DNA of 64,000 nucleotides from an uncultured Acidobacteriota bacterium (GCA_963810205.1 CAWEMP010000013.1:14573-78572); one strand, 5' to 3'; positions 50,241-57,655 are shown, counted from the stretch's first letter. Numbers and translations are program-made. The notes: generated by a model not told the origin, from the sequence alone.

Positions 50241-50392
50241 AGAAGTGGGCGGATTATGTCAAACAATCGGATTTGCAAGACCGGGAGCGTGAAACCCGGC
50301 CATGGCGGCGGCATCGAAGGTGCGGGAGTGAAGCTGTGAGCCCTTTTGGCCGGATTCGGACGGGACGGGGAAAGATCCGCCCGGGCCCCGGA

Positions 50393-50640
50393 ATGAGCGC
50401 CGGCGAGCGCCCGTACATCACTACTTCCTCTACCTCTATCTCGAGGGCGAGCTGCCCGAGGACCGCCGCCGCGAGTTCGAGCGCCACCTCGGGGTCTGCG
50501 ATCCGTGCCGGTACATCCGCCAGTACCGCGAGTCGATCGAGCTGGGCCGGGCGGCCTTCCGCGGCGACGACCTTCCGCGGACGAGGCGGCCCCCGAGGAG
50601 CTCGTCCAGGCCATCCTGCGCGCACGGATGAAGGGGTAGG
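50393..50640 (+). CDS. Possible zf-HC2 anti-sigma-factor-like small protein (H-x3-C-x2-C); frameshifted
   Basis: HHYFLYLYLEGELPEDRRREFERHLGVCDPCR in a frame offset from the ATG. Very tentative. Confidence 0.3.
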
Positions 50641-50680
50641 TTGGCCCGTTCCGTACGCGAGCGTGGATAGAATTCGGGCC

Positions 50681-51684
50681 ATGCCGATCGATCGCCGGAC
50701 CCTCCTGTCCCTGGCCGCCGCCTCGCTCGCACACTCCGGGTTCACATCCGCGCGGCCGGGCCCGACGAAGACCTCCGAGGTCAAGACCGCCGGGATCCGC
50801 CTGATCCCGGTCGACGGCAGGTACAAGGTCTGGACGAAGAAGCTCGGCAAGGGCCCCATCCAGATGCTCACGCTTCACGGCGGGCCGGGCGTCACCCACG
50901 AATACTTCGAGTGCTTCGAGGACTTTCTTCCGCAGGCTGGCGTCGAGTTCTACTACTACGACCAGCTCGGCTCCTTCTACTCCGACCAGCCCGACGACCC
51001 GTCCCTCTGGACGATCGACCGTTTTCGCGAGGAGGTCGAGCAGGTGCGCGCGGCACTCGGCCTGGAGAACTTCATACCTCTACGGCCAGTCATGGGGCAG
51101 CATGCTCGCGATCGAGTACGCGCTGAAGTACCAGAAGCACCTGAAGGGCCTGGTGCTCTCGAGCATGACGGCCTCGATCCCGTCCTACATGGCCTACGTC
51201 GCGAAGCTCCGCGCCGCGTTGCCGAAGCCGATGCTCGCCACACTCGAGAAGTACGAAGCCGAGGGCAAGTACGACGCGCCCGAGTACCAGGAAGCGATGT
51301 ACGAGGGCGTCTACAAGCGCCACGTCTGCCGTCTCGACCCGTGGCCGGATCCCGTGGCGCGCGCCTTCAAGCACATCAACAACCAGGTCTACGGAACGAT
51401 GCAGGGACCCAACGAATTCGTCGTGACCGGGACCTTCAAGGACTGGGACCGCTGGAACGACCTCGCGAAGATCAAGGTTCCCGACGCTCGTCGTCGGCGC
51501 GACGTACGACGAGATGAACCCGGACGACATTCGCCGGATGGGGACGCTCTTGCCGCGCTCCCGGGTCGCGATCTGCGAGAACGGCAGCCATCTGGCCATG
51601 TGGGACGACCAGGAAGCCTACTTCCGGCATCTCGTGGCTTTCCTGCAGGACGTCCAGGCCGGCCGGTTCCCGTCCCGGGCTTAA
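50681..51684 (+). CDS. Proline iminopeptidase-like alpha/beta hydrolase (S33) with Tat signal; 2 frameshifts
   Basis: MPIDRRTLLSLAAAS..., LTLHGGPGV, GQSWG nucleophile elbow. C-terminus in a third frame. Confidence 0.7.
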
Positions 51685-52008
51685 CCATTTCTTGAGAATC
51701 GCGGGGCTGGGGCGCACGAAACCTCTGCCGACCGGGTGCATCGAAGCGTCGTGAGATCCGACTCCGGGGGTACCCGCGTACTCCGCGGGAGACCGGGGGG
51801 GCCCCGGCTCCCATTCCGGGTGCGGGGCGAGGGCGCCGGAGACCCGGGGGATGTGCCGGGCGCGCTTTCCGGCGATAGAATTTGCGGCTCGAGTCGCTCG
51901 AGTCGCTCGAGCGACGCGATCCGGAAAAACGAGGGTATCTCGCGGTAGCCATGTCGGCTGCAGCGGTGGTGGGTGGAACCCCGAAACGGGGAGCGAAAGG
52001 AGACAGGG

Positions 52009-52428
52009 ATGAAGAAGGGCGATCTGACGGTGAAGGCGATCGGTCTCGCGGTGGCCGGTGTTCTCGCGGGCTCGCAGCTGCTCTCGGCTCTGCCGAAGAA
52101 CGAGTCGAAGGCCGGCGGCAAGAACGGCAACGCGAGCCAGGACGCCAAGGACAAGACGGCCGCTTCCTCCGACAAGCACGTCTGCAAGGGCATGAACTCG
52201 TGCAAGGGGAAGGGCGGTTGTAAGAGCGGCGACGCCGGCTGCGCGGGCAAGAACTCCTGCAAGGGCAAGGGCGGCTGCGCTTCGGCCGACATGAAGCACT
52301 CCTGCAAGGGCATGAACGCGTGCAAGGGCCAGGGCGGCTGCAAGAGCGGCGAGAACGGCTGCGCCGGCAAGAACTCCTGCAAGGGCAAGGGCGGCTGCGC
52401 GGTTCCGGTCGCGAAGAAGGCGGCCTAG
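52009..52428 (+). CDS. Cys-rich RiPP precursor candidate: Sec signal peptide plus two near-identical 6-Cys modules (12 Cys), bufferin/BUF_6/12Cys-like
   Basis: AAAGGAGACAGGG RBS. MKKGDLTVKAIGLAVAGVLAGSQLLSALP. Modules HVCKGMNSCKGKGGCKSGDAGCAGKNSCKGKGGCA and HSCKGMNACKGQGGCKSGENGCAGKNSCKGKGGCA. Confidence 0.7.
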   Translation: MKKGDLTVKAIGLAVAGVLAGSQLLSALPKNESKAGGKNGNASQDAKDKTAASSDKHVCKGMNSCKGKGGCKSGDAGCAGKNSCKGKGGCASADMKHSCKGMNACKGQGGCKSGENGCAGKNSCKGKGGCAVPVAKKAA

Positions 52429-52445
52429 TTTCATCGTCAGAAGAC

Positions 52446-52478
52446 GGGGGGACGCGGCCAGACCGCGCCCCCCGTTTT
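52446..52478 (+). terminator. GC-rich hairpin plus short U-tract between precursor and MNIO gene (putative attenuator/partial terminator)
   Basis: ggggggacgcgg ccagac cgcgcccccc gtttt. Confidence 0.4.
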
Positions 52479-52502
52479 GATTTCCCGAGACCCGAAGACA
52501 CC

Positions 52503-53363
52503 TTGAGACCCGAGAACCGAAACCGCTGGAGCTTCCCCGACCTCGGCGTCGGCGTGGGCCTGCGCACGGTCCACTACGCGCACATCCTCGAGCAGAAGCC
52601 CGAGGTCGATTTCTTCGAGGTTCTGTCGGAGAACTACCTCGACACGGGCGGCCGGCCCGCCTGGGTGCTCGACCAGGTCGCCGAACGGTACCCCGTCGTT
52701 CTGCACGGCGTTTCGATGTCGATCGGCTCGACCGATCCGCTCGACCGCGCCTACCTCTCGAAACTGAAAGCCCTCGCCGCCCGCACCCGCGCCCTCTGGG
52801 TTTCGGACCATCTGTGCTGGACCGGCGTTTCCGGACGGAATACCCACGACCTGCTCCCGATGCCGCTGACCGAGGAGGCGCTCGCGCACGTCGTCGCCCG
52901 CGTGAAGATCGTGTCGGACATCCTCGAGCGGCCGCTGATCCTCGAGAACGCCTCGACGTACGCGGAGTTCGCCGCGTCGAGCATGACGGAGTGGGAGTTC
53001 TTCGGCCGGCTGATGGAGGAGGCGGACTGCGGGATGCTCCTCGACGTCAACAACGTCTACGTCAGCGCCTTCAACCACGGATTCGACCCGAAGGCCTACC
53101 TCGACGCGATCGATCCGTCGCGCGTGGCGCAGTACCACCTCGCGGGCCACACGAACAAGGGAACGCACATCCTCGACACGCACAGCGACCACGCCATCCC
53201 GGAGGTCTGGGAGCTCTACCGCCGCTCGGTCGCGCGCACGGGCAACGTGGCCACGCTGTTCGAGTGGGACGGCGACATCCCGGCCTTCGAGGTGGTGCAC
53301 GCCGAAGCCCTGAAGGCCCGGAAGTTCCGGGACGAGGAGAACAAGGTTGCCGCGGCCTCTTGA
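52503..53363 (+). CDS. DUF692/UPF0276 enzyme = multinuclear non-haem iron oxidase (MNIO; MbnB/BufB-like)
   Basis: GVGLR...DFFEVLSENY...HGVSMSIGS...SDHLCW...LENASTY...LLDVNNVYVSAFNHG...YHLAGH...LFEWD. TTG start is inferred. Confidence 0.8.
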   Translation: MRPENRNRWSFPDLGVGVGLRTVHYAHILEQKPEVDFFEVLSENYLDTGGRPAWVLDQVAERYPVVLHGVSMSIGSTDPLDRAYLSKLKALAARTRALWVSDHLCWTGVSGRNTHDLLPMPLTEEALAHVVARVKIVSDILERPLILENASTYAEFAASSMTEWEFFGRLMEEADCGMLLDVNNVYVSAFNHGFDPKAYLDAIDPSRVAQYHLAGHTNKGTHILDTHSDHAIPEVWELYRRSVARTGNVATLFEWDGDIPAFEVVHAEALKARKFRDEENKVAAAS

Positions 53364-54198
53364 GCTGCCGCTTCCGCGCCTCCAGCGCTGGATGCAGGCG
53401 GTCATCGAGCAGCCCGGAACGGCGGAGGAAGCCGTCGCGGCCGAGGCGGCGCGGGCCGAGCTCGATCCCGCGTCGATCGCCGGCGTGATCCTCCCGTCGA
53501 AGACACTGTCGCCGGTCGAGCGAATCGGCGTCTACCAGGGCATGTACCTGCTGCGGATGGTCGAGGCGCTCGAAAACGATTTCCCGGCCGTCGCGCACTT
53601 CCTCGGGGCCGAGCGCTTCGCGGAGCTCGTCACGCGATACGTCGCGGCTCATCCGTCGAGGAGCTACACGTTCAACCGCCTGGGCGACAGTTTCCCCGGG
53701 TTCATTAGGACGTCGTACAGGGTCCGCCGGAAGGCCTTCGTCGCCGAGCTCGCGCGCCTCGAGAGTCTGGTGACCGAGGTGTTCGACGCGCCGCCGTCGC
53801 CAGCCTGGCCCGCCGAGGAGATCGCGGAGATCCCGGAAGCGGCCTGGCCGGGCGCCGTGCTCGTGCCGTCGGCGGCCCTGCGGGTCGGGTCGTTCGCCTA
53901 CCCGGTCAACGCCTACCTGCAGTCGGTCAAGGACGAGAACCACGACCATCCGGCGACCGGCCGGCAACCCACGTGGATCGCGGTTTATCGGAAGAACTAC
54001 GAGGTCTGGCGGCTCGATCTCTCGAAGCCGGCCCACGACTTCCTCGCCGCCCTCGTGAAGGGCCGGCCGTTCGGCAAGGCCGTCGTCGCGGCCACACGCG
54101 GGCTCCAGGGCGCGCCTGGCGAGCCGCTCTTCCGCTGGCTGCGCGACTGGGTGGCCGAGGGCTTCTTCCAGAGCGTCGTCCTCCCGACTCCTCGCTGA
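53347..54198 (+). CDS. DUF2063 protein (MbnC/BufC-like MNIO partner)
   Basis: Overlaps the MNIO gene by 17 nt. N-terminal LQRWMQAVI motif region. 283 aa. Confidence 0.75.
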   Translation: MPRPLELPLPRLQRWMQAVIEQPGTAEEAVAAEAARAELDPASIAGVILPSKTLSPVERIGVYQGMYLLRMVEALENDFPAVAHFLGAERFAELVTRYVAAHPSRSYTFNRLGDSFPGFIRTSYRVRRKAFVAELARLESLVTEVFDAPPSPAWPAEEIAEIPEAAWPGAVLVPSAALRVGSFAYPVNAYLQSVKDENHDHPATGRQPTWIAVYRKNYEVWRLDLSKPAHDFLAALVKGRPFGKAVVAATRGLQGAPGEPLFRWLRDWVAEGFFQSVVLPTPR

Positions 54199-54225
54199 GG
54201 AGCGCCCGCCTATAATCCCGGCCGC

Positions 54226-56520
54226 GTGCTTCCGGACTCGGGAATTCTTTCGCTGTCGAACGGGCGCAGGTGGCTCGCCCTCGGCGCGCTCTTCGCCCTC
54301 CAGCGCGCGCTCGCTCTCGCCGGCACACCCGCGAACGCGGCGCGCTTCGTCGCGATCCTGGCTCTCGGTCTCGCCTGCGCCGGGTCGGCGCTCGCGTTCG
54401 AAGGCCGCGTCGTCCTGAAGGGGTCCCTCGACCCGGTCGTCGGCGCGGAGGTCGTGGTCCTCGGGTCCAACGTCACGCAGATCACCGGCCCCGGGGGCTT
54501 CTTCCGCTGGGAGCCGACGCCCGTCGCGCCCTTCGAGGTTCTCGTCGTGCTGCCGGGCGGCCGTTACATGCGGCCGTTCACCGTCGCGAGCCTTCCCGCC
54601 GACGGCCCGGTGACGATCACCGTGGAGCCGATCGCCGAAGAGAGCGTGCTCGTGACGGCCGGAGCGGCGCCGACGATCGAGGCGACGCCGGTCAACGGGA
54701 CGACCATCGTCCCGAAACAGGACATCGAGTCGCGCCAGCCGTTCAACCTGACGCAGTCGGTGGAGAACGTGGCGGGCGTGTCGTCGGTTTCGGAGGGCCA
54801 GGCGGCGGTCCCGGCGATTCGCGGCCTCGCGCGCGGGAGGAGCCTCATCCTCCTCGACGGCGCGCGGGTGTCGTCGGAGCGGCGCGTAGGCCCGAGCGCG
54901 ACGTACGTCGACCCGTTCGTGCTCGATGGCGTCGAAGTGGCGCGCGGTCCGGGCTCGGTGGCCTACGGGTCGGACGCGTTCGGCGGCGTGATCGCGGCGC
55001 GCACGCTCGCCGTGGCGCCCGGCGGGCCGCTCCACGTCGAGGCGACCGGCGACTACGGCGTCGGAATCCCGGGCGGCAGCGTCGGCGCCTCGGTCTCCTC
55101 GCCTCTCGGCGCGGACGGGGGCATCCTCGTCGCCGGGCACTACCGCTCCTACGGGAACTGGGACAGCCCCGACGGCGAGGTGATCAACTCGGGCTTCCGC
55201 GACAGCGGCGTGCTCGTGCGCGCTTCCTACCTGCTGGGTCCCGGGACTCTGACCGCGGGCTGGCAGGGCGACTACGGCCGGGACATCGACCGTCCGCGCA
55301 ACAACTCGGACGTCGTGCGCTTCTTCTATCCCGAGGAGAACTCGAGCCGGTTCACGCTGTCGTACGACAGCCAGCCGTTCGCCGGGTTCTCGCGCGTCGG
55401 CTTCGTCGGGCTCATCGGCTCCTACGACCAGATCACGGACCAGTACCGGTACGCGACGCCGGCGACGGTCGCGTCGGTCGAGCGGGCCGACGTCTCGGCC
55501 AACGACTTCCAGGCCCGCGGCTTCGCGGAGCGGTTCTTCGGCCCCGTGCGGGTCGAGCTCGGAGTCGACGTCAACGGCCGCTACGACCTGCACGCCCTCG
55601 ACGTCGCCGTCCGGTACACGGACCCGATCGAAGAGCGGGTCAACGTGTCCGTCGACGACGCGCACCGCACGGACGCCGCCGGTTACCTGACGGCGGAGGC
55701 GGCGCTTCTGAAGCAGCTGACGCTCTCCGGCGGCGTGCGCTACGACAGCGTGACGACGGTCAACCAGGGCGGCTACTTCGGCGACCAGTCCACTTCGAAC
55801 GGCGCCGTGTCGGGCTCGGTCGCGCTGACCGCGGGCTCCTTCGGCGGTTTCTCCGCGACCGGGCAGTTCTCGCACGGGTTCCGCGATCCGGTCTTGTCGG
55901 ACCGGTACTTTCGAGGCCCTTCGGGCCGCGGTTTCATCACCGGCAACCCGGATCTCGAGCCGGAGACGGCGGACCAGTGGGACGTCGCCCTGCGCTACAA
56001 CGGATCCGGCTTCCGCACGGCGTTCTACATGTACGACTACACGATCACGAACCTCATCGAGCGGTACGCGGGCGAGCTCCCGGACGACTTCTTCTTCCGC
56101 AACCGGGGCGAAGCCCACCTGCAGGGGCTCGAGCTCGAGGTGCAGGTGGACCTTCCCGAGGGATTCGCCGTGGCGCTGGCCGGGCAGATCGAGCGCGGCG
56201 TCACCGTGGACGACGACCGGCCGATCGACGACATACCGCCGGAGTCGCTGAATCTCCAGCTGCGCAAGGCCTTCGGGCCGGCGTTCGTCCAGGCGCGCGG
56301 CGTCGTATACGCGGGCGACGCCAACCCCGGGCCCAACGAGCGGGCGAGGCCGGGCTACGGGTTGCTCGACCTCGGCGGCGGGTACCGCTTCGCGGAGCAC
56401 TTCGAGCTCCAGGCGTACGTGCGGAACGTGCTCGACAAGCTCTACCTGGTCAGTCCCGACGCGCGCGCCGTGCCGGCGCCGGGGATCTCGGCGACGTTCA
56501 CGGGCTTCGTTCGGTTCTAG
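54226..56520 (+). CDS. TonB-dependent outer-membrane receptor with N-terminal carboxypeptidase-regulatory-like domain
   Basis: Plug region (IRGLARGRSLILLDGARV), a 22-strand barrel, terminal F. Confidence 0.85.
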   Translation: MLPDSGILSLSNGRRWLALGALFALQRALALAGTPANAARFVAILALGLACAGSALAFEGRVVLKGSLDPVVGAEVVVLGSNVTQITGPGGFFRWEPTPVAPFEVLVVLPGGRYMRPFTVASLPADGPVTITVEPIAEESVLVTAGAAPTIEATPVNGTTIVPKQDIESRQPFNLTQSVENVAGVSSVSEGQAAVPAIRGLARGRSLILLDGARVSSERRVGPSATYVDPFVLDGVEVARGPGSVAYGSDAFGGVIAARTLAVAPGGPLHVEATGDYGVGIPGGSVGASVSSPLGADGGILVAGHYRSYGNWDSPDGEVINSGFRDSGVLVRASYLLGPGTLTAGWQGDYGRDIDRPRNNSDVVRFFYPEENSSRFTLSYDSQPFAGFSRVGFVGLIGSYDQITDQYRYATPATVASVERADVSANDFQARGFAERFFGPVRVELGVDVNGRYDLHALDVAVRYTDPIEERVNVSVDDAHRTDAAGYLTAEAALLKQLTLSGGVRYDSVTTVNQGGYFGDQSTSNGAVSGSVALTAGSFGGFSATGQFSHGFRDPVLSDRYFRGPSGRGFITGNPDLEPETADQWDVALRYNGSGFRTAFYMYDYTITNLIERYAGELPDDFFFRNRGEAHLQGLELEVQVDLPEGFAVALAGQIERGVTVDDDRPIDDIPPESLNLQLRKAFGPAFVQARGVVYAGDANPGPNERARPGYGLLDLGGGYRFAEHFELQAYVRNVLDKLYLVSPDARAVPAPGISATFTGFVRF

Positions 56521-56562
56521 GACGGCCGGGCGCGGGAAGTCAGGAGCCCGGAGGCAACGATC

Positions 56563-57655
56563 GGGGTCAGCCCTGAAGGTCTGACGATTGGGGTCTGACC
56601 TGAAAGTCTGAAGGTTCGTGCCCGAGCGCGGACGCGACCCGCTCGACGCGTCTTGCGAGAGCCGGATCGCGAACCATCGCCCTCTCCAGCCGGCGCAGGC
56701 CGTGGGCGAACGCGGATTCGTCTCGCCCGAAGCAGCCGGCCAGCGCAGCAGCCGCGATCCCATGGTCCCGCCGCCCGACATAAGCGGTGATCAGACGTGC
56801 CTGTGACTCCGCTCGGCCCTGCGACGGCCCCTTCAGCCAACCGAGCGAGAAGCCCTGCAGCGTGCATGCTGCAGTCGCGAATGTCGACGGCGTCCAGCGG
56901 CTCTCCTTTGGCAAGGCCAACCGCGCCTCGTGCAACGAGCGCCGCGCGAACTCCTCCCCACCCTTGACGACGCGCCCGAGCGGTTCGACGTCGTCGTAGG
57001 ATTCAGGCTCGGCGGATCCCATCCAGTGCCGATACGCCGCGCGCGCTCGTGGCCGAGTCGACGCGAGCCGCTGCAGCACGAAATCGACATCGAGCCAGCT
57101 CGGTCCTCCTCCCTCGCGGTACCACCGATCGCTTGACCAGGGGAAGACCTCGGGTCGGTCCACGATCCCGGCCTTGACCGGATTGAGGTGAATGTACCGG
57201 ACGAGCGTCGCCAGGTAGCGCTCATGCTCCACGAGGAAGGCCTTGTACCGGCCCTGAAAGAGATGGCCGACGCGATCGTGCCGGACGTTGAACTTCTGGC
57301 TGTAGTAGAAATGCAGCGCCAGCATGACCTTCGAGAGGAGGACGGGACCTCGCTCGATCGCCAGATGGACGTGGTTCGGCATGAGGCAATAGGCGAGCAC
57401 GCCGAACCCATATCGATCGCGGCATTCGGCGAGTCGCGAGAGGTACAGTCGCCGATCTGCGTCGTCGCGGAAGAGGTCACGCCGCTCGTTTCCGCGGGCG
57501 ATGACGTGATAAACGCCCCCGGCGATCTCGACTCGCGGCGCGCGCGACATCGCTTCCGATTTCGCTCCTCTATCCCTACTATTGTCGCAAGCGGGCCCTG
57601 AAGTGTCATACCTTCAGGGCTGACCCCAAGTGTCAGACTTTCAGGGCTGACCCCC
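56563..57655. mobile_element. REP-associated tyrosine transposase (RAYT) unit flanked by inverted doublets of REP-like hairpin sequences
   Basis: Left GGGGTCAGCCCTGAAGGTCTGAC and GGGGTCTGACCTGAAAGTCTGAAGG. Right GTCATACCTTCAGGGCTGACCCC and GTCAGACTTTCAGGGCTGACCCCC (reverse complements, 1 mismatch). Confidence 0.7.
56567..57550 (-). CDS. tnpA: IS200/IS605-like Y1 (HuH) transposase, REP-associated (RAYT/TnpA_REP)
   Basis: VYHVIARGNERRDLF...LMPNHVHLAIE...HLFQGRYKA (HuH and catalytic Y). The ORF tail reads into the REP. Confidence 0.8.
   Translation of the reverse strand: MSRAPRVEIAGGVYHVIARGNERRDLFRDDADRRLYLSRLAECRDRYGFGVLAYCLMPNHVHLAIERGPVLLSKVMLALHFYYSQKFNVRHDRVGHLFQGRYKAFLVEHERYLATLVRYIHLNPVKAGIVDRPEVFPWSSDRWYREGGGPSWLDVDFVLQRLASTRPRARAAYRHWMGSAEPESYDDVEPLGRVVKGGEEFARRSLHEARLALPKESRWTPSTFATAACTLQGFSLGWLKGPSQGRAESQARLITAYVGRRDHGIAAAALAGCFGRDESAFAHGLRRLERAMVRDPALARRVERVASALGHEPSDFQVRPQSSDLQG

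Follow-up and report, generated by a model that had tools for sequence, protein, structure and literature searches.

Bufferin precursors of C. vibrioides are exported by the Sec pathway and carry cysteine residues that BufB and BufC convert to 5-thiooxazoles, and in the periplasm their products bind copper and shield the bacterium from copper stress (Leprevost et al. 2024, PMC11626156). Thiooxazole formation together with periplasmic copper binding is known only for Buf1 and Buf2 of C. vibrioides. In the Buf2 product the central four cysteines show -4 Da shifts, and a disulfide between CysI and CysVI is probable (PMC11626156). The Buf2 family is defined by "6 or 12 conserved Cys", the 12-Cys form consisting of duplicated 6-Cys domains and making up about 10% of Buf2 precursors in published surveys (PMC11626156, PMC12452194). 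The bufA-bufB-bufC order has been called strictly conserved (PMC12452194), and the signal peptide has been suggested in the literature to be part of BufB-BufC recognition. A 2026 study (PMC13097082) describes captophorins, which it splits into Lys-Cys, Cys-Lys and DUF2282 substrate groups; in this scheme a Phe follows the catalytic Asp in the Lys-Cys enzymes, whereas the Cys-Lys enzymes have an Asp at that site. Here we examine an open reading frame (ORF) at positions 52009-52428 in a 64,000-nucleotide stretch of DNA from an uncultured Acidobacteriota bacterium (GCA_963810205.1, CAWEMP010000013.1:14573-78572; the whole stretch is called the window below). Our best explanation, to which we give a probability of roughly 85%, is that this ORF is bufA2, the gene for a BufA2-type precursor of a 12-Cys bufferin (Buf2, BUF_6/12Cys type) in a bufABC operon, and that its product is matured and exported by the mechanism proposed below.

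The bufA2 product is built from two near-identical six-cysteine modules

The segment 52009-52428 on the plus strand is exactly one ORF of 139 codons plus stop, running from ATG to TAG, and its product has the sequence MKKGDLTVKAIGLAVAGVLAGSQLLSALPKNESKAGGKNGNASQDAKDKTAASSDKHVCKGMNSCKGKGGCKSGDAGCAGKNSCKGKGGCASADMKHSCKGMNACKGQGGCKSGENGCAGKNSCKGKGGCAVPVAKKAA. The protein contains 12 cysteines, at residues 59, 65, 71, 78, 84 and 90 and at residues 99, 105, 111, 118, 124 and 130, and the two sets are offset by 40 residues (120 nucleotides). Module 1 (H57-A91, 52177-52281) reads HVCKGMNSCKGKGGC-KSGDAG-CAGKNSCKGKGGCA, with a Cys-to-Cys extent of 52183-52278, and module 2 (H97-A131, 52297-52401) reads HSCKGMNACKGQGGC-KSGENG-CAGKNSCKGKGGCA, with a Cys-to-Cys extent of 52303-52398. 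Between them lies the linker SADMK (residues 92-96, 52282-52296), so that 8 residues separate Cys90 from Cys99. The spacing is C-x5-C-x5-C-x6-C-x5-C-x5-C, then x8, then the identical spacing again. An earlier note on this DNA had reported that the cysteine register repeats exactly, which it does, but the formula given there (C-x4-C-x5-C-x6-C-x6-C-x5-C) has to be replaced, as the real gaps are 5, 5, 6, 5 and 5. The same note had described a tandem duplication of a Gly/Lys-rich 6-Cys module containing CKGKGGC, and the comparison of the protein with itself bears this out: at offset 40, 30 of 35 residues are identical, against a maximum of 15 in 100,000 composition-preserving shuffles, which places the repeat far beyond chance. 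The modules differ at 5 positions within the 35-residue H..A module and at 8 over the 39-residue period, roughly the seven or so differences that had been estimated. At the DNA level 97 of 117 positions are identical, including a 35-nucleotide exact repeat at 52246 and 52366. The 75-residue core contains 20 Gly, 14 Lys and 12 Cys, and each module has a signature of its own, CKGKGGC in module 1 and CKGQGGC in module 2.

Each module is in turn made of two copies of a 13-residue 3-Cys unit, CKGMNSCKGKGGC and CAGKNSCKGKGGC, with the pattern C-x-G-x-N-x-C-K-G-x-G-G-C. The half-units lie at 52183-52221 and 52240-52278 in module 1 and at 52303-52341 and 52360-52398 in module 2, and are identical to one another at 31-38 of 39 nucleotides. 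Conservation is concentrated in this region. An alignment of 84 sequences has 25 invariant columns, among them all 12 Cys, four Asn (one per half-unit), His97 and several module Gly, and both modules show one and the same strongly conserved series of residues after their Cys, K, K, K, A, K, A, giving eight CK and four CA dyads in the core. Four C-x5-C-x5-C units are present in 105 of the 120 top homologues, and among the first 60 of these the cysteine register of the window protein recurs in most, with an inter-module gap of 8 and in some cases 7 or 6 residues.

When the modules of 102 two-module proteins were compared, the nearest neighbor of a module fell at its own position in a different protein in 156 cases, at the other position in 5 and on its own partner in 7. 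On these comparisons the duplication is old and positionally orthologous across proteins, and because same-position modules are the most alike, the similarity between the two modules would reflect constraint on that old duplication. A recent duplication or gene conversion as the cause of the identity between modules was rejected on the same counts.

The number of 3-Cys units varies among the 120 best homologues, where proteins with 2, 3, 4, 5 and 6 units occur (the copy-number variants listed are P0032, P0053, P0021, P0030, P0026 and P0055). The 6-Cys (P0032, P0053) and 9-Cys (P0021) forms have a signal peptide and a tail much like those of the window protein, and P0053 looks like a recombinant of modules 1 and 2; the 15-, 18- and 25-Cys proteins are more distant. 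Real recombination, or collapse of the repeat during assembly, could account for the 6- and 9-Cys variants.

The precursor is a probable member of the BufA2 family

The sole NCBIfam match for the ORF is NF050166, "BufA2 family periplasmic bufferin-type metallophore", with an E-value of 1.3e-14 over two stretches. An alignment to the BufA2 family had been proposed earlier; it was run with NF050166 as a proxy for the published authors' Buf_6/12Cys hidden Markov model, and both modules align to the 6-Cys core of the profile, just as the modules of relatives align without gaps to its positions of about 27-62. Together with the BufB and DUF2063 neighbors, the gene order and the literature definition of the family, this supports the BufA2 (BUF_6/12Cys) type suggested in the earlier note: the protein has 12 conserved Cys in the family register and a Sec-type N-terminal signal peptide, as Buf2 precursors do. 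Other types fit less well. PF10048 (DUF2282), the domain with four conserved Cys which marks Buf1, gave no match to the precursor even at E-values up to 10, and the precursor contains no EGKCG motif, as found in oxazolin/Buf_EGKCG.

The profile scores of this clade lie near or under the curated cutoff. Those tested included the window protein and P0002, P0019, P0022, P0030, P0032, P0053, P0061 and P0101. Of the relatives, the seven that have one, two or two-and-a-half modules scored 27-60 bits, only one of them reaching 60, and the two longer ones (18 and 25 Cys) scored 89.6 and 69.4 bits. The homology of the window protein to the profile is significant, but an automatic pipeline would not name it. 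Because most one- or two-module members of the clade that were tested are at or below the cutoff, such pipelines overlook them, and counts of the 12-Cys form in soil phyla are probably too low. Public records label the bufA2 precursor a "hypothetical protein", and the scores of the one- to two-and-a-half-module proteins tested fit with such labels.

The reading frame of bufA2 is intact

The window holds other genes with a frameshifted look, which makes the frame of bufA2 relevant, and the earlier note had named a frame error, such as an indel inside the ORF, as the finding that would undo the duplication. The GC content of bufA2 at codon positions 1, 2 and 3 is 0.53, 0.55 and 0.93, and inspection of the sequence places a ribosome-binding site, AAGGAG (51997-52002, plus strand), 6 nucleotides before the ATG; AAAGGAG is invariant at this place in 12 related loci. 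An independent public assembly (ENA ERZ25039602 contig_15512, locus L001) encodes an identical precursor protein. Its bufA2 differs from that of the window by five nucleotides, all synonymous, and there is no indel between the two over 51900-56533. The two operons are 98-99% identical, and yet the two sequences are not the same contig: blastn over 42175-62417 gave 94.5% identity over 16.4 kb with 146 gap columns, which lie mostly at 46-48 kb, whereas the operon (about 99% identical) is free of gaps. More than 7,400 homologues of the bufA2 product were scored at E-values of 1e-3 or better, and full-length homologues reach 94% identity. A frame error is excluded on this evidence.

bufA2 is followed by genes for a bufferin maturase and its partner

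Directly after bufA2 lies bufB (52503-53363, plus strand, TTG start, 286 residues), for an MNIO (DUF692) bufferin maturase. On NF050167, "MNIO family bufferin maturase", BufB reaches 354.4 bits where the cutoff is 310, and on PF05114 it reaches 361 bits; the coordinates of the gene match the public gene call on L001. The protein matches PDB entry 3BWW (E 1e-50) and structures of the MbnB/TglH type. On the HvfB, ApyH, MbnB and ChrH models it scores lower and below cutoff, for example 259.4 bits against 360 for HvfB (NF003818) and 59.7 against 325 for MbnB (TIGR04159). The next gene, bufC (53347-54198, plus strand, 283 residues), overlaps bufB by 17 nucleotides and encodes a DUF2063/HvfC_N partner (PME type 1), with 70 bits on PF09836 (cutoff 27.2) and 61 bits on the HvfC model NF050145, below its cutoff of 142. 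A sequence search of the PDB gave no match for the precursor or BufC.

The window thus has the precursor-MNIO-DUF2063 gene order of Buf2, and bufA2, bufB and bufC are co-linear in about 70 of 80 species-representative genomes with a relative. The hosts are mostly Acidobacteriota (Thermoanaerobaculia, Vicinamibacteria) and Planctomycetota, with some Gammaproteobacteria and others; the closest relatives are metagenome-assembled genomes of uncultured Acidobacteriota and Thermoanaerobaculia. A DoxX gene often stands just upstream or downstream of the bufABC genes of relatives. One stand-alone homologue has heavy-metal P-type ATPase, MerR, DUF305 and RND genes as neighbors, a setting in favor of the bufferin reading.

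In the alignment to 3BWW, a Lys-Cys-type enzyme that reads ERDFNFP at this place, the window BufB reads EWDGDIP: it lacks the Phe after the catalytic Asp and has an Asp one position further on. Among 73 sequences of related BufB proteins the motif is EWD[AEGDQ][DNES]IP, with A, E, G, D or Q but in no case F at the site itself, and mostly D, N, E or S after it. This is in broad agreement with the specificity site of PMC13097082 and is consistent with co-adaptation to Cys-Lys substrates. [quoted passage not shown]

Several close relatives have a second MNIO-DUF2063 cluster directly upstream (L002 5389-8532, L006 1251-5803, L009, L017 and L018), whose members are, among others, a small protein that weakly matches BufA1 and genes of the HbpS-like and SGL (gluconolactonase-like) types. 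In the window the flanking STAS and zf-HC2 genes remain but this second cluster is missing, and tblastn of the 64-kb window found no second MNIO and no second precursor.

Predicted export and maturation of the precursor

Residues 1-27 (52009-52089) form the predicted signal peptide, with a basic n-region (MKKGDLTVK), the h-region AIGLAVAGVLAGSQLL and a hydrophobic stretch over residues 10-27; Kyte-Doolittle hydropathy peaks at 2.45 at residue 15, and there is no lipobox Cys. Cleavage would probably occur after Ala27, at the inferred site LSA|LP. In the 84-sequence alignment an AVAGxxAG motif is conserved in the h-region, with G17 and G21 at least 90% conserved. The adjoining spacer (residues 28-56, 52090-52176), rich in Lys, Gly, Asn, Ser and Asp, is poorly conserved, with a mean column conservation of 0.22 against 0.85 for the modules. 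A conserved AVAGxxAG beside a variable spacer fits the published idea that the signal peptide takes part in BufB-BufC recognition.

Export signals vary within the family. A twin-arginine motif of the RR-x-F-x-K type was found by regular expression in the n-region of 41 of the 120 best homologues, of which at least two are likely false positives (examples are P0029, P0033, P0035, P0039, P0054, P0056 and P0067, within the range P0026-P0120), and a lipobox-like Cys occurs in a further 18. The window precursor has KK, not RR, and looks Sec-type. The bufferin papers searched name Sec only, and the words "Tat" and "twin-arginine" are absent from them.

By analogy with the characterized relatives, we propose that the precursor is synthesized in the cytoplasm, where BufB and BufC would oxidize cysteines to 5-thiooxazole heterocycles, and that the signal peptide would then take the chain across the inner membrane and be cut off. 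The remaining product of about 112 residues (about 10.8 kDa) should stay in the periplasm, not be secreted as the earlier note had assumed, and would sequester copper through its thiooxazole ligands. From the conservation of K/K/K/A/K/A in both modules we predict four thiooxazoles and one disulfide per module, which would give eight heterocycles and two disulfides in all. The earlier note had left open whether the precursor yields two mature metallophore units or one 12-Cys product. The latter is favored, since the linker has no conserved cleavage motif, the window contains no protease gene, and characterized relatives are handled as full chains. The most likely outcome is a single exported two-domain product with up to eight Cys-Lys sites present as thiooxazoles, which might hold about twice the metal of a 6-Cys bufferin.

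Alternative explanations

Several results weigh against the bufferin reading. The whole-protein NF050166 score is 54.1 bits, below the curated equivalog cutoff of 60, and Pfam gives the precursor only a sub-threshold match to DUF7640 (E 0.011, 16 bits). AlphaFold2 run on the 84-sequence alignment returned a predicted local distance difference test (pLDDT) score of 47.5, a predicted template modeling score (pTM) of 0.23 and almost no secondary structure, and with a model of such low confidence the two-domain fold is not supported for the window protein. The C. vibrioides precedent, in which CysI and CysVI are unmodified, does not correspond one-to-one with the Cys-Lys rule, and no experimentally characterized 12-Cys bufferin was found in the literature searched. 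In the 64-kb window tblastn found no DoxX and no extracytoplasmic function (ECF) sigma factor, and a Pfam survey of 33-47 kb turned up no genes for resistance to copper or heavy metals, its finds being limited to a histidine kinase, a response regulator, an EAL protein, a glycosyltransferase and a HlyD-type adaptor of a generic kind; the copper link accordingly rests on homology. Four other explanations were weighed against the same evidence.

The precursor might be a multi-core one, in which a protease cuts the linker after modification and export and frees two 6-Cys bufferins. Both modules are complete copies with a conserved Lys-His before each, the clade also has 6-Cys proteins of one module that share the signal peptide and tail (P0032, P0053), and in the close relatives L002 and L009 a subtilase (Peptidase_S8) gene lies just downstream. 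In the window, however, there is no protease gene, with just 46 nucleotides between the receptor gene and a transposase-like gene. The linker, of 5-8 residues, is moderately conserved only as A-x-A-x-x-K-H, which mirrors the K-H ahead of module 1, and has no recognizable processing motif. Characterized multi-repeat relatives were handled as full-length exported chains, for instance gonophorin with its "full-length product" (PMC13097082), and the published model of a 12-Cys Buf2 is that of a two-domain protein (PMC12452194). On balance two separate products seem unlikely.

Less likely again is a chalkophore-like role in metal acquisition, in which the metal-loaded peptide or its cargo would be handled by a TonB-dependent receptor, as methanobactin is by MbnT. 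A gene for such a receptor (54226-56520, plus strand, 764 residues) does begin 28 nucleotides downstream of bufC; it is intact, with plug and beta-barrel domains and a C-terminal Phe, and in the window, L001, L002 and L016 it runs in the same direction as bufC with almost no gap between the two. Among more than 80 loci, however, these four are the only ones with the receptor directly beside bufC. It is displaced and broken in L010, and of the closest clade L009, L011-L015 and L017 are without it and have subtilase or glycogen-debranching genes after bufC instead; in the other loci, about 75, it was not detected. The receptor as a conserved member of the cluster was rejected because its adjacency is sporadic even in the closest clade, and it is an accessory neighbor, not a conserved part of the system. 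Its best matches are generic haem and siderophore subfamilies, all below cutoff, with 36 bits on a TonB-copper model, and the transposase-like gene beside it marks a break in synteny. The precursor, moreover, comes with a signal peptide but without a system for export across the outer membrane.

It is very improbable that the protein acts unmodified, like a periplasmic metallothionein that binds metal through free thiolates, with BufB and BufC acting elsewhere or on few sites. Stand-alone homologues without adjacent MNIO genes do occur (L003/L071, L007, L030, L075), and public surveys report precursor genes unlinked to an MNIO gene. Against this, bufB and bufC come directly after the precursor gene here, as in most of the related loci (about 70 of 80), the linked MNIO enzymes carry the EWD-type motif in place of the ERDFNFP of 3BWW, and C. 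vibrioides Buf2 carries modifications on its central four Cys. The last alternative, a spurious or frameshifted ORF in a GC-rich, indel-prone long-read assembly, gains some color from the frameshifted look of the neighbors (an abhydrolase gene at 50.7-51.7 kb in three frames, a split zf-HC2 remnant) but is already refuted by the third-position GC of 0.93 against 0.53 and 0.55, the ribosome-binding site, the identical protein encoded with synonymous differences in an indel-free operon of an independent assembly, and the thousands of relatives, up to 94% identical, that keep the invariant Cys.

Beyond the 12-Cys bufferin reading, a joint reading of several of these observations can be offered, which we consider a long shot. 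The 13-residue 3-Cys unit C-x-G-x-N-x-C-K-G-x-G-G-C might be the real evolutionary unit, its copy number shifting fast by recombination between near-identical DNA repeats (2-6 units, with 2- and 3-unit forms inside the same clade) and so tuning metal capacity, and the receptor-bearing Thermoanaerobaculia-like lineage may have turned the 12-Cys bufferin from pure periplasmic buffering to the trafficking or acquisition of metal. Separately, export could be by Tat and not Sec for the part of the family, about a third, that has twin-arginine signals.

Flanking sequence elements and wider neighborhood

Between bufA2 and bufB, at 52441-52478 on the plus strand, a GC-rich stem-loop is followed by UUUUGAUUU, a U-rich tract. 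Its folding energy is -35.2 kcal/mol (z = -4.75), and the nine closest loci listed (L009-L017) each have an equivalent stem, though its sequence differs. In 32 of 68 loci the fold at this gap is in the lowest 5% of the background of the locus itself. The hairpin is probably terminator- or attenuator-like and would raise the ratio of precursor to enzyme transcript.

Upstream of bufA2 there is a -10-like element, GATAGAAT (51874-51881, plus strand), which is GATAGAAT or GATAAGAT in an alignment of the 11 closest loci, is conserved in the closest clade only and is a putative promoter; a scan of 51600-52600 for sigma-70 consensus promoters and terminators gave no matches. The motif GTA(a/t)CTCG-N5-AGCCATGTCGGCT, with a 5-bp hairpin, lies at 51935-51959 on the plus strand, 59 nucleotides before the ATG. 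Found in the closest clade only, and with compensatory changes in two of its five stem pairs, it may be an operator, an alternative-sigma promoter or an element of the 5'-untranslated region. A CCCC-N5-GGGG hairpin at 51979-51991 adjoins the ribosome-binding site and is likewise conserved only in the closest clade. An Rfam search of 51500-52600 returned nothing. At 51902-51915 a perfect 14-nucleotide palindrome, GTCGCTCGAGCGAC, sits within tandem CTCGAGTCG repeats; it is shared only in part with the two nearest relatives, L002 and L009.

The transposase-like gene that follows the receptor is of the IS200/Y1 type (56567-57550, minus strand) and stands at the synteny break. L002 and L009 have Peptidase_S8 and ECF sigma genes, which the window lacks. 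Upstream of bufA2, a proline-iminopeptidase-like alpha/beta hydrolase gene (50273-51695) is spread over three frames and a zf-HC2 anti-sigma homologue (50425-50636) is split between two. Long ORFs that overlap one another at 46.7-49.9 kb and 57.7-60.7 kb hint at more frameshifts. These frame-split neighbors are either pseudogenes or the result of long-read indel errors.

Comparison with known systems

Of the systems compared, methanobactin (MbnA/MbnB/MbnC, with MbnT) shares with the window a Cys-modifying MNIO enzyme, a copper-binding ribosomal peptide (predicted here) and a TonB-dependent receptor nearby. The methanobactin precursor, however, is a short leader-core peptide without a signal peptide, whereas the window precursor has one; the partner protein is MbnC in place of DUF2063, and methanobactin is secreted and re-imported, while the adjacency of a receptor to the bufferin genes is sporadic.

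Oxazolin, fontiphorin and gonophorin (Buf_EGKCG, the Lys-Cys captophorins) resemble the window protein in their signal peptide and in their repeated Cys motifs of variable copy number, and are modified to 5-thiooxazoles by MNIO-DUF2063 pairs closely related to that of the window. Their repeat is the 5-mer EGKCG, with Lys before Cys, whereas in the window Lys comes after Cys within 13-residue 3-Cys units. The enzymes differ as well, the window MNIO falling below the HvfB cutoff (259 against 360 bits) and having EWDGDIP where 3BWW has ERDFNFP.

The characterized 6-Cys founder of the family, C. vibrioides BufA2 (bufferin 2, CCNA_03001), likewise has a Sec-type signal peptide, a 6-Cys core and a BufB2/BufC2-type pair, with no doxX. 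It has a single module, in which CysI and CysVI stand at core positions 24 and 50, 26 apart compared with 31 in the window, and it is under SigF regulation, of which the window shows no evident sign. Four -4 Da Cys and one disulfide make up its known chemistry; that of the window product is a prediction.

Closest of all are the 12-Cys Buf2 members (PMC11626156; the 2025 MNIO landscape paper, PMC12452194), which have the same signal peptide, two 6-Cys modules and bufABC order, with nothing essential different. A DoxX gene is optional among them; the window has none and has a TonB-dependent receptor gene downstream. A two-domain model has been reported for another member, whereas the AlphaFold2 model of the window protein is unconfident, and the window copy, from an uncultured Acidobacteriota bacterium, scores just under the NF050166 cutoff. 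The 12-Cys duplication is already published, and the window gene is an ordinary addition to a large family. The genes bufA2-bufB-bufC can confidently be called a bufferin operon of an uncultured, Thermoanaerobaculia-like member of the Acidobacteriota, with little import beyond annotation. Among 12-Cys bufferins this member is well conserved, in a clean operon and with eight predicted Cys-Lys sites, which makes it a reasonable candidate for the study of copper stoichiometry, of the cysteines that are converted and of the integrity of the chain.

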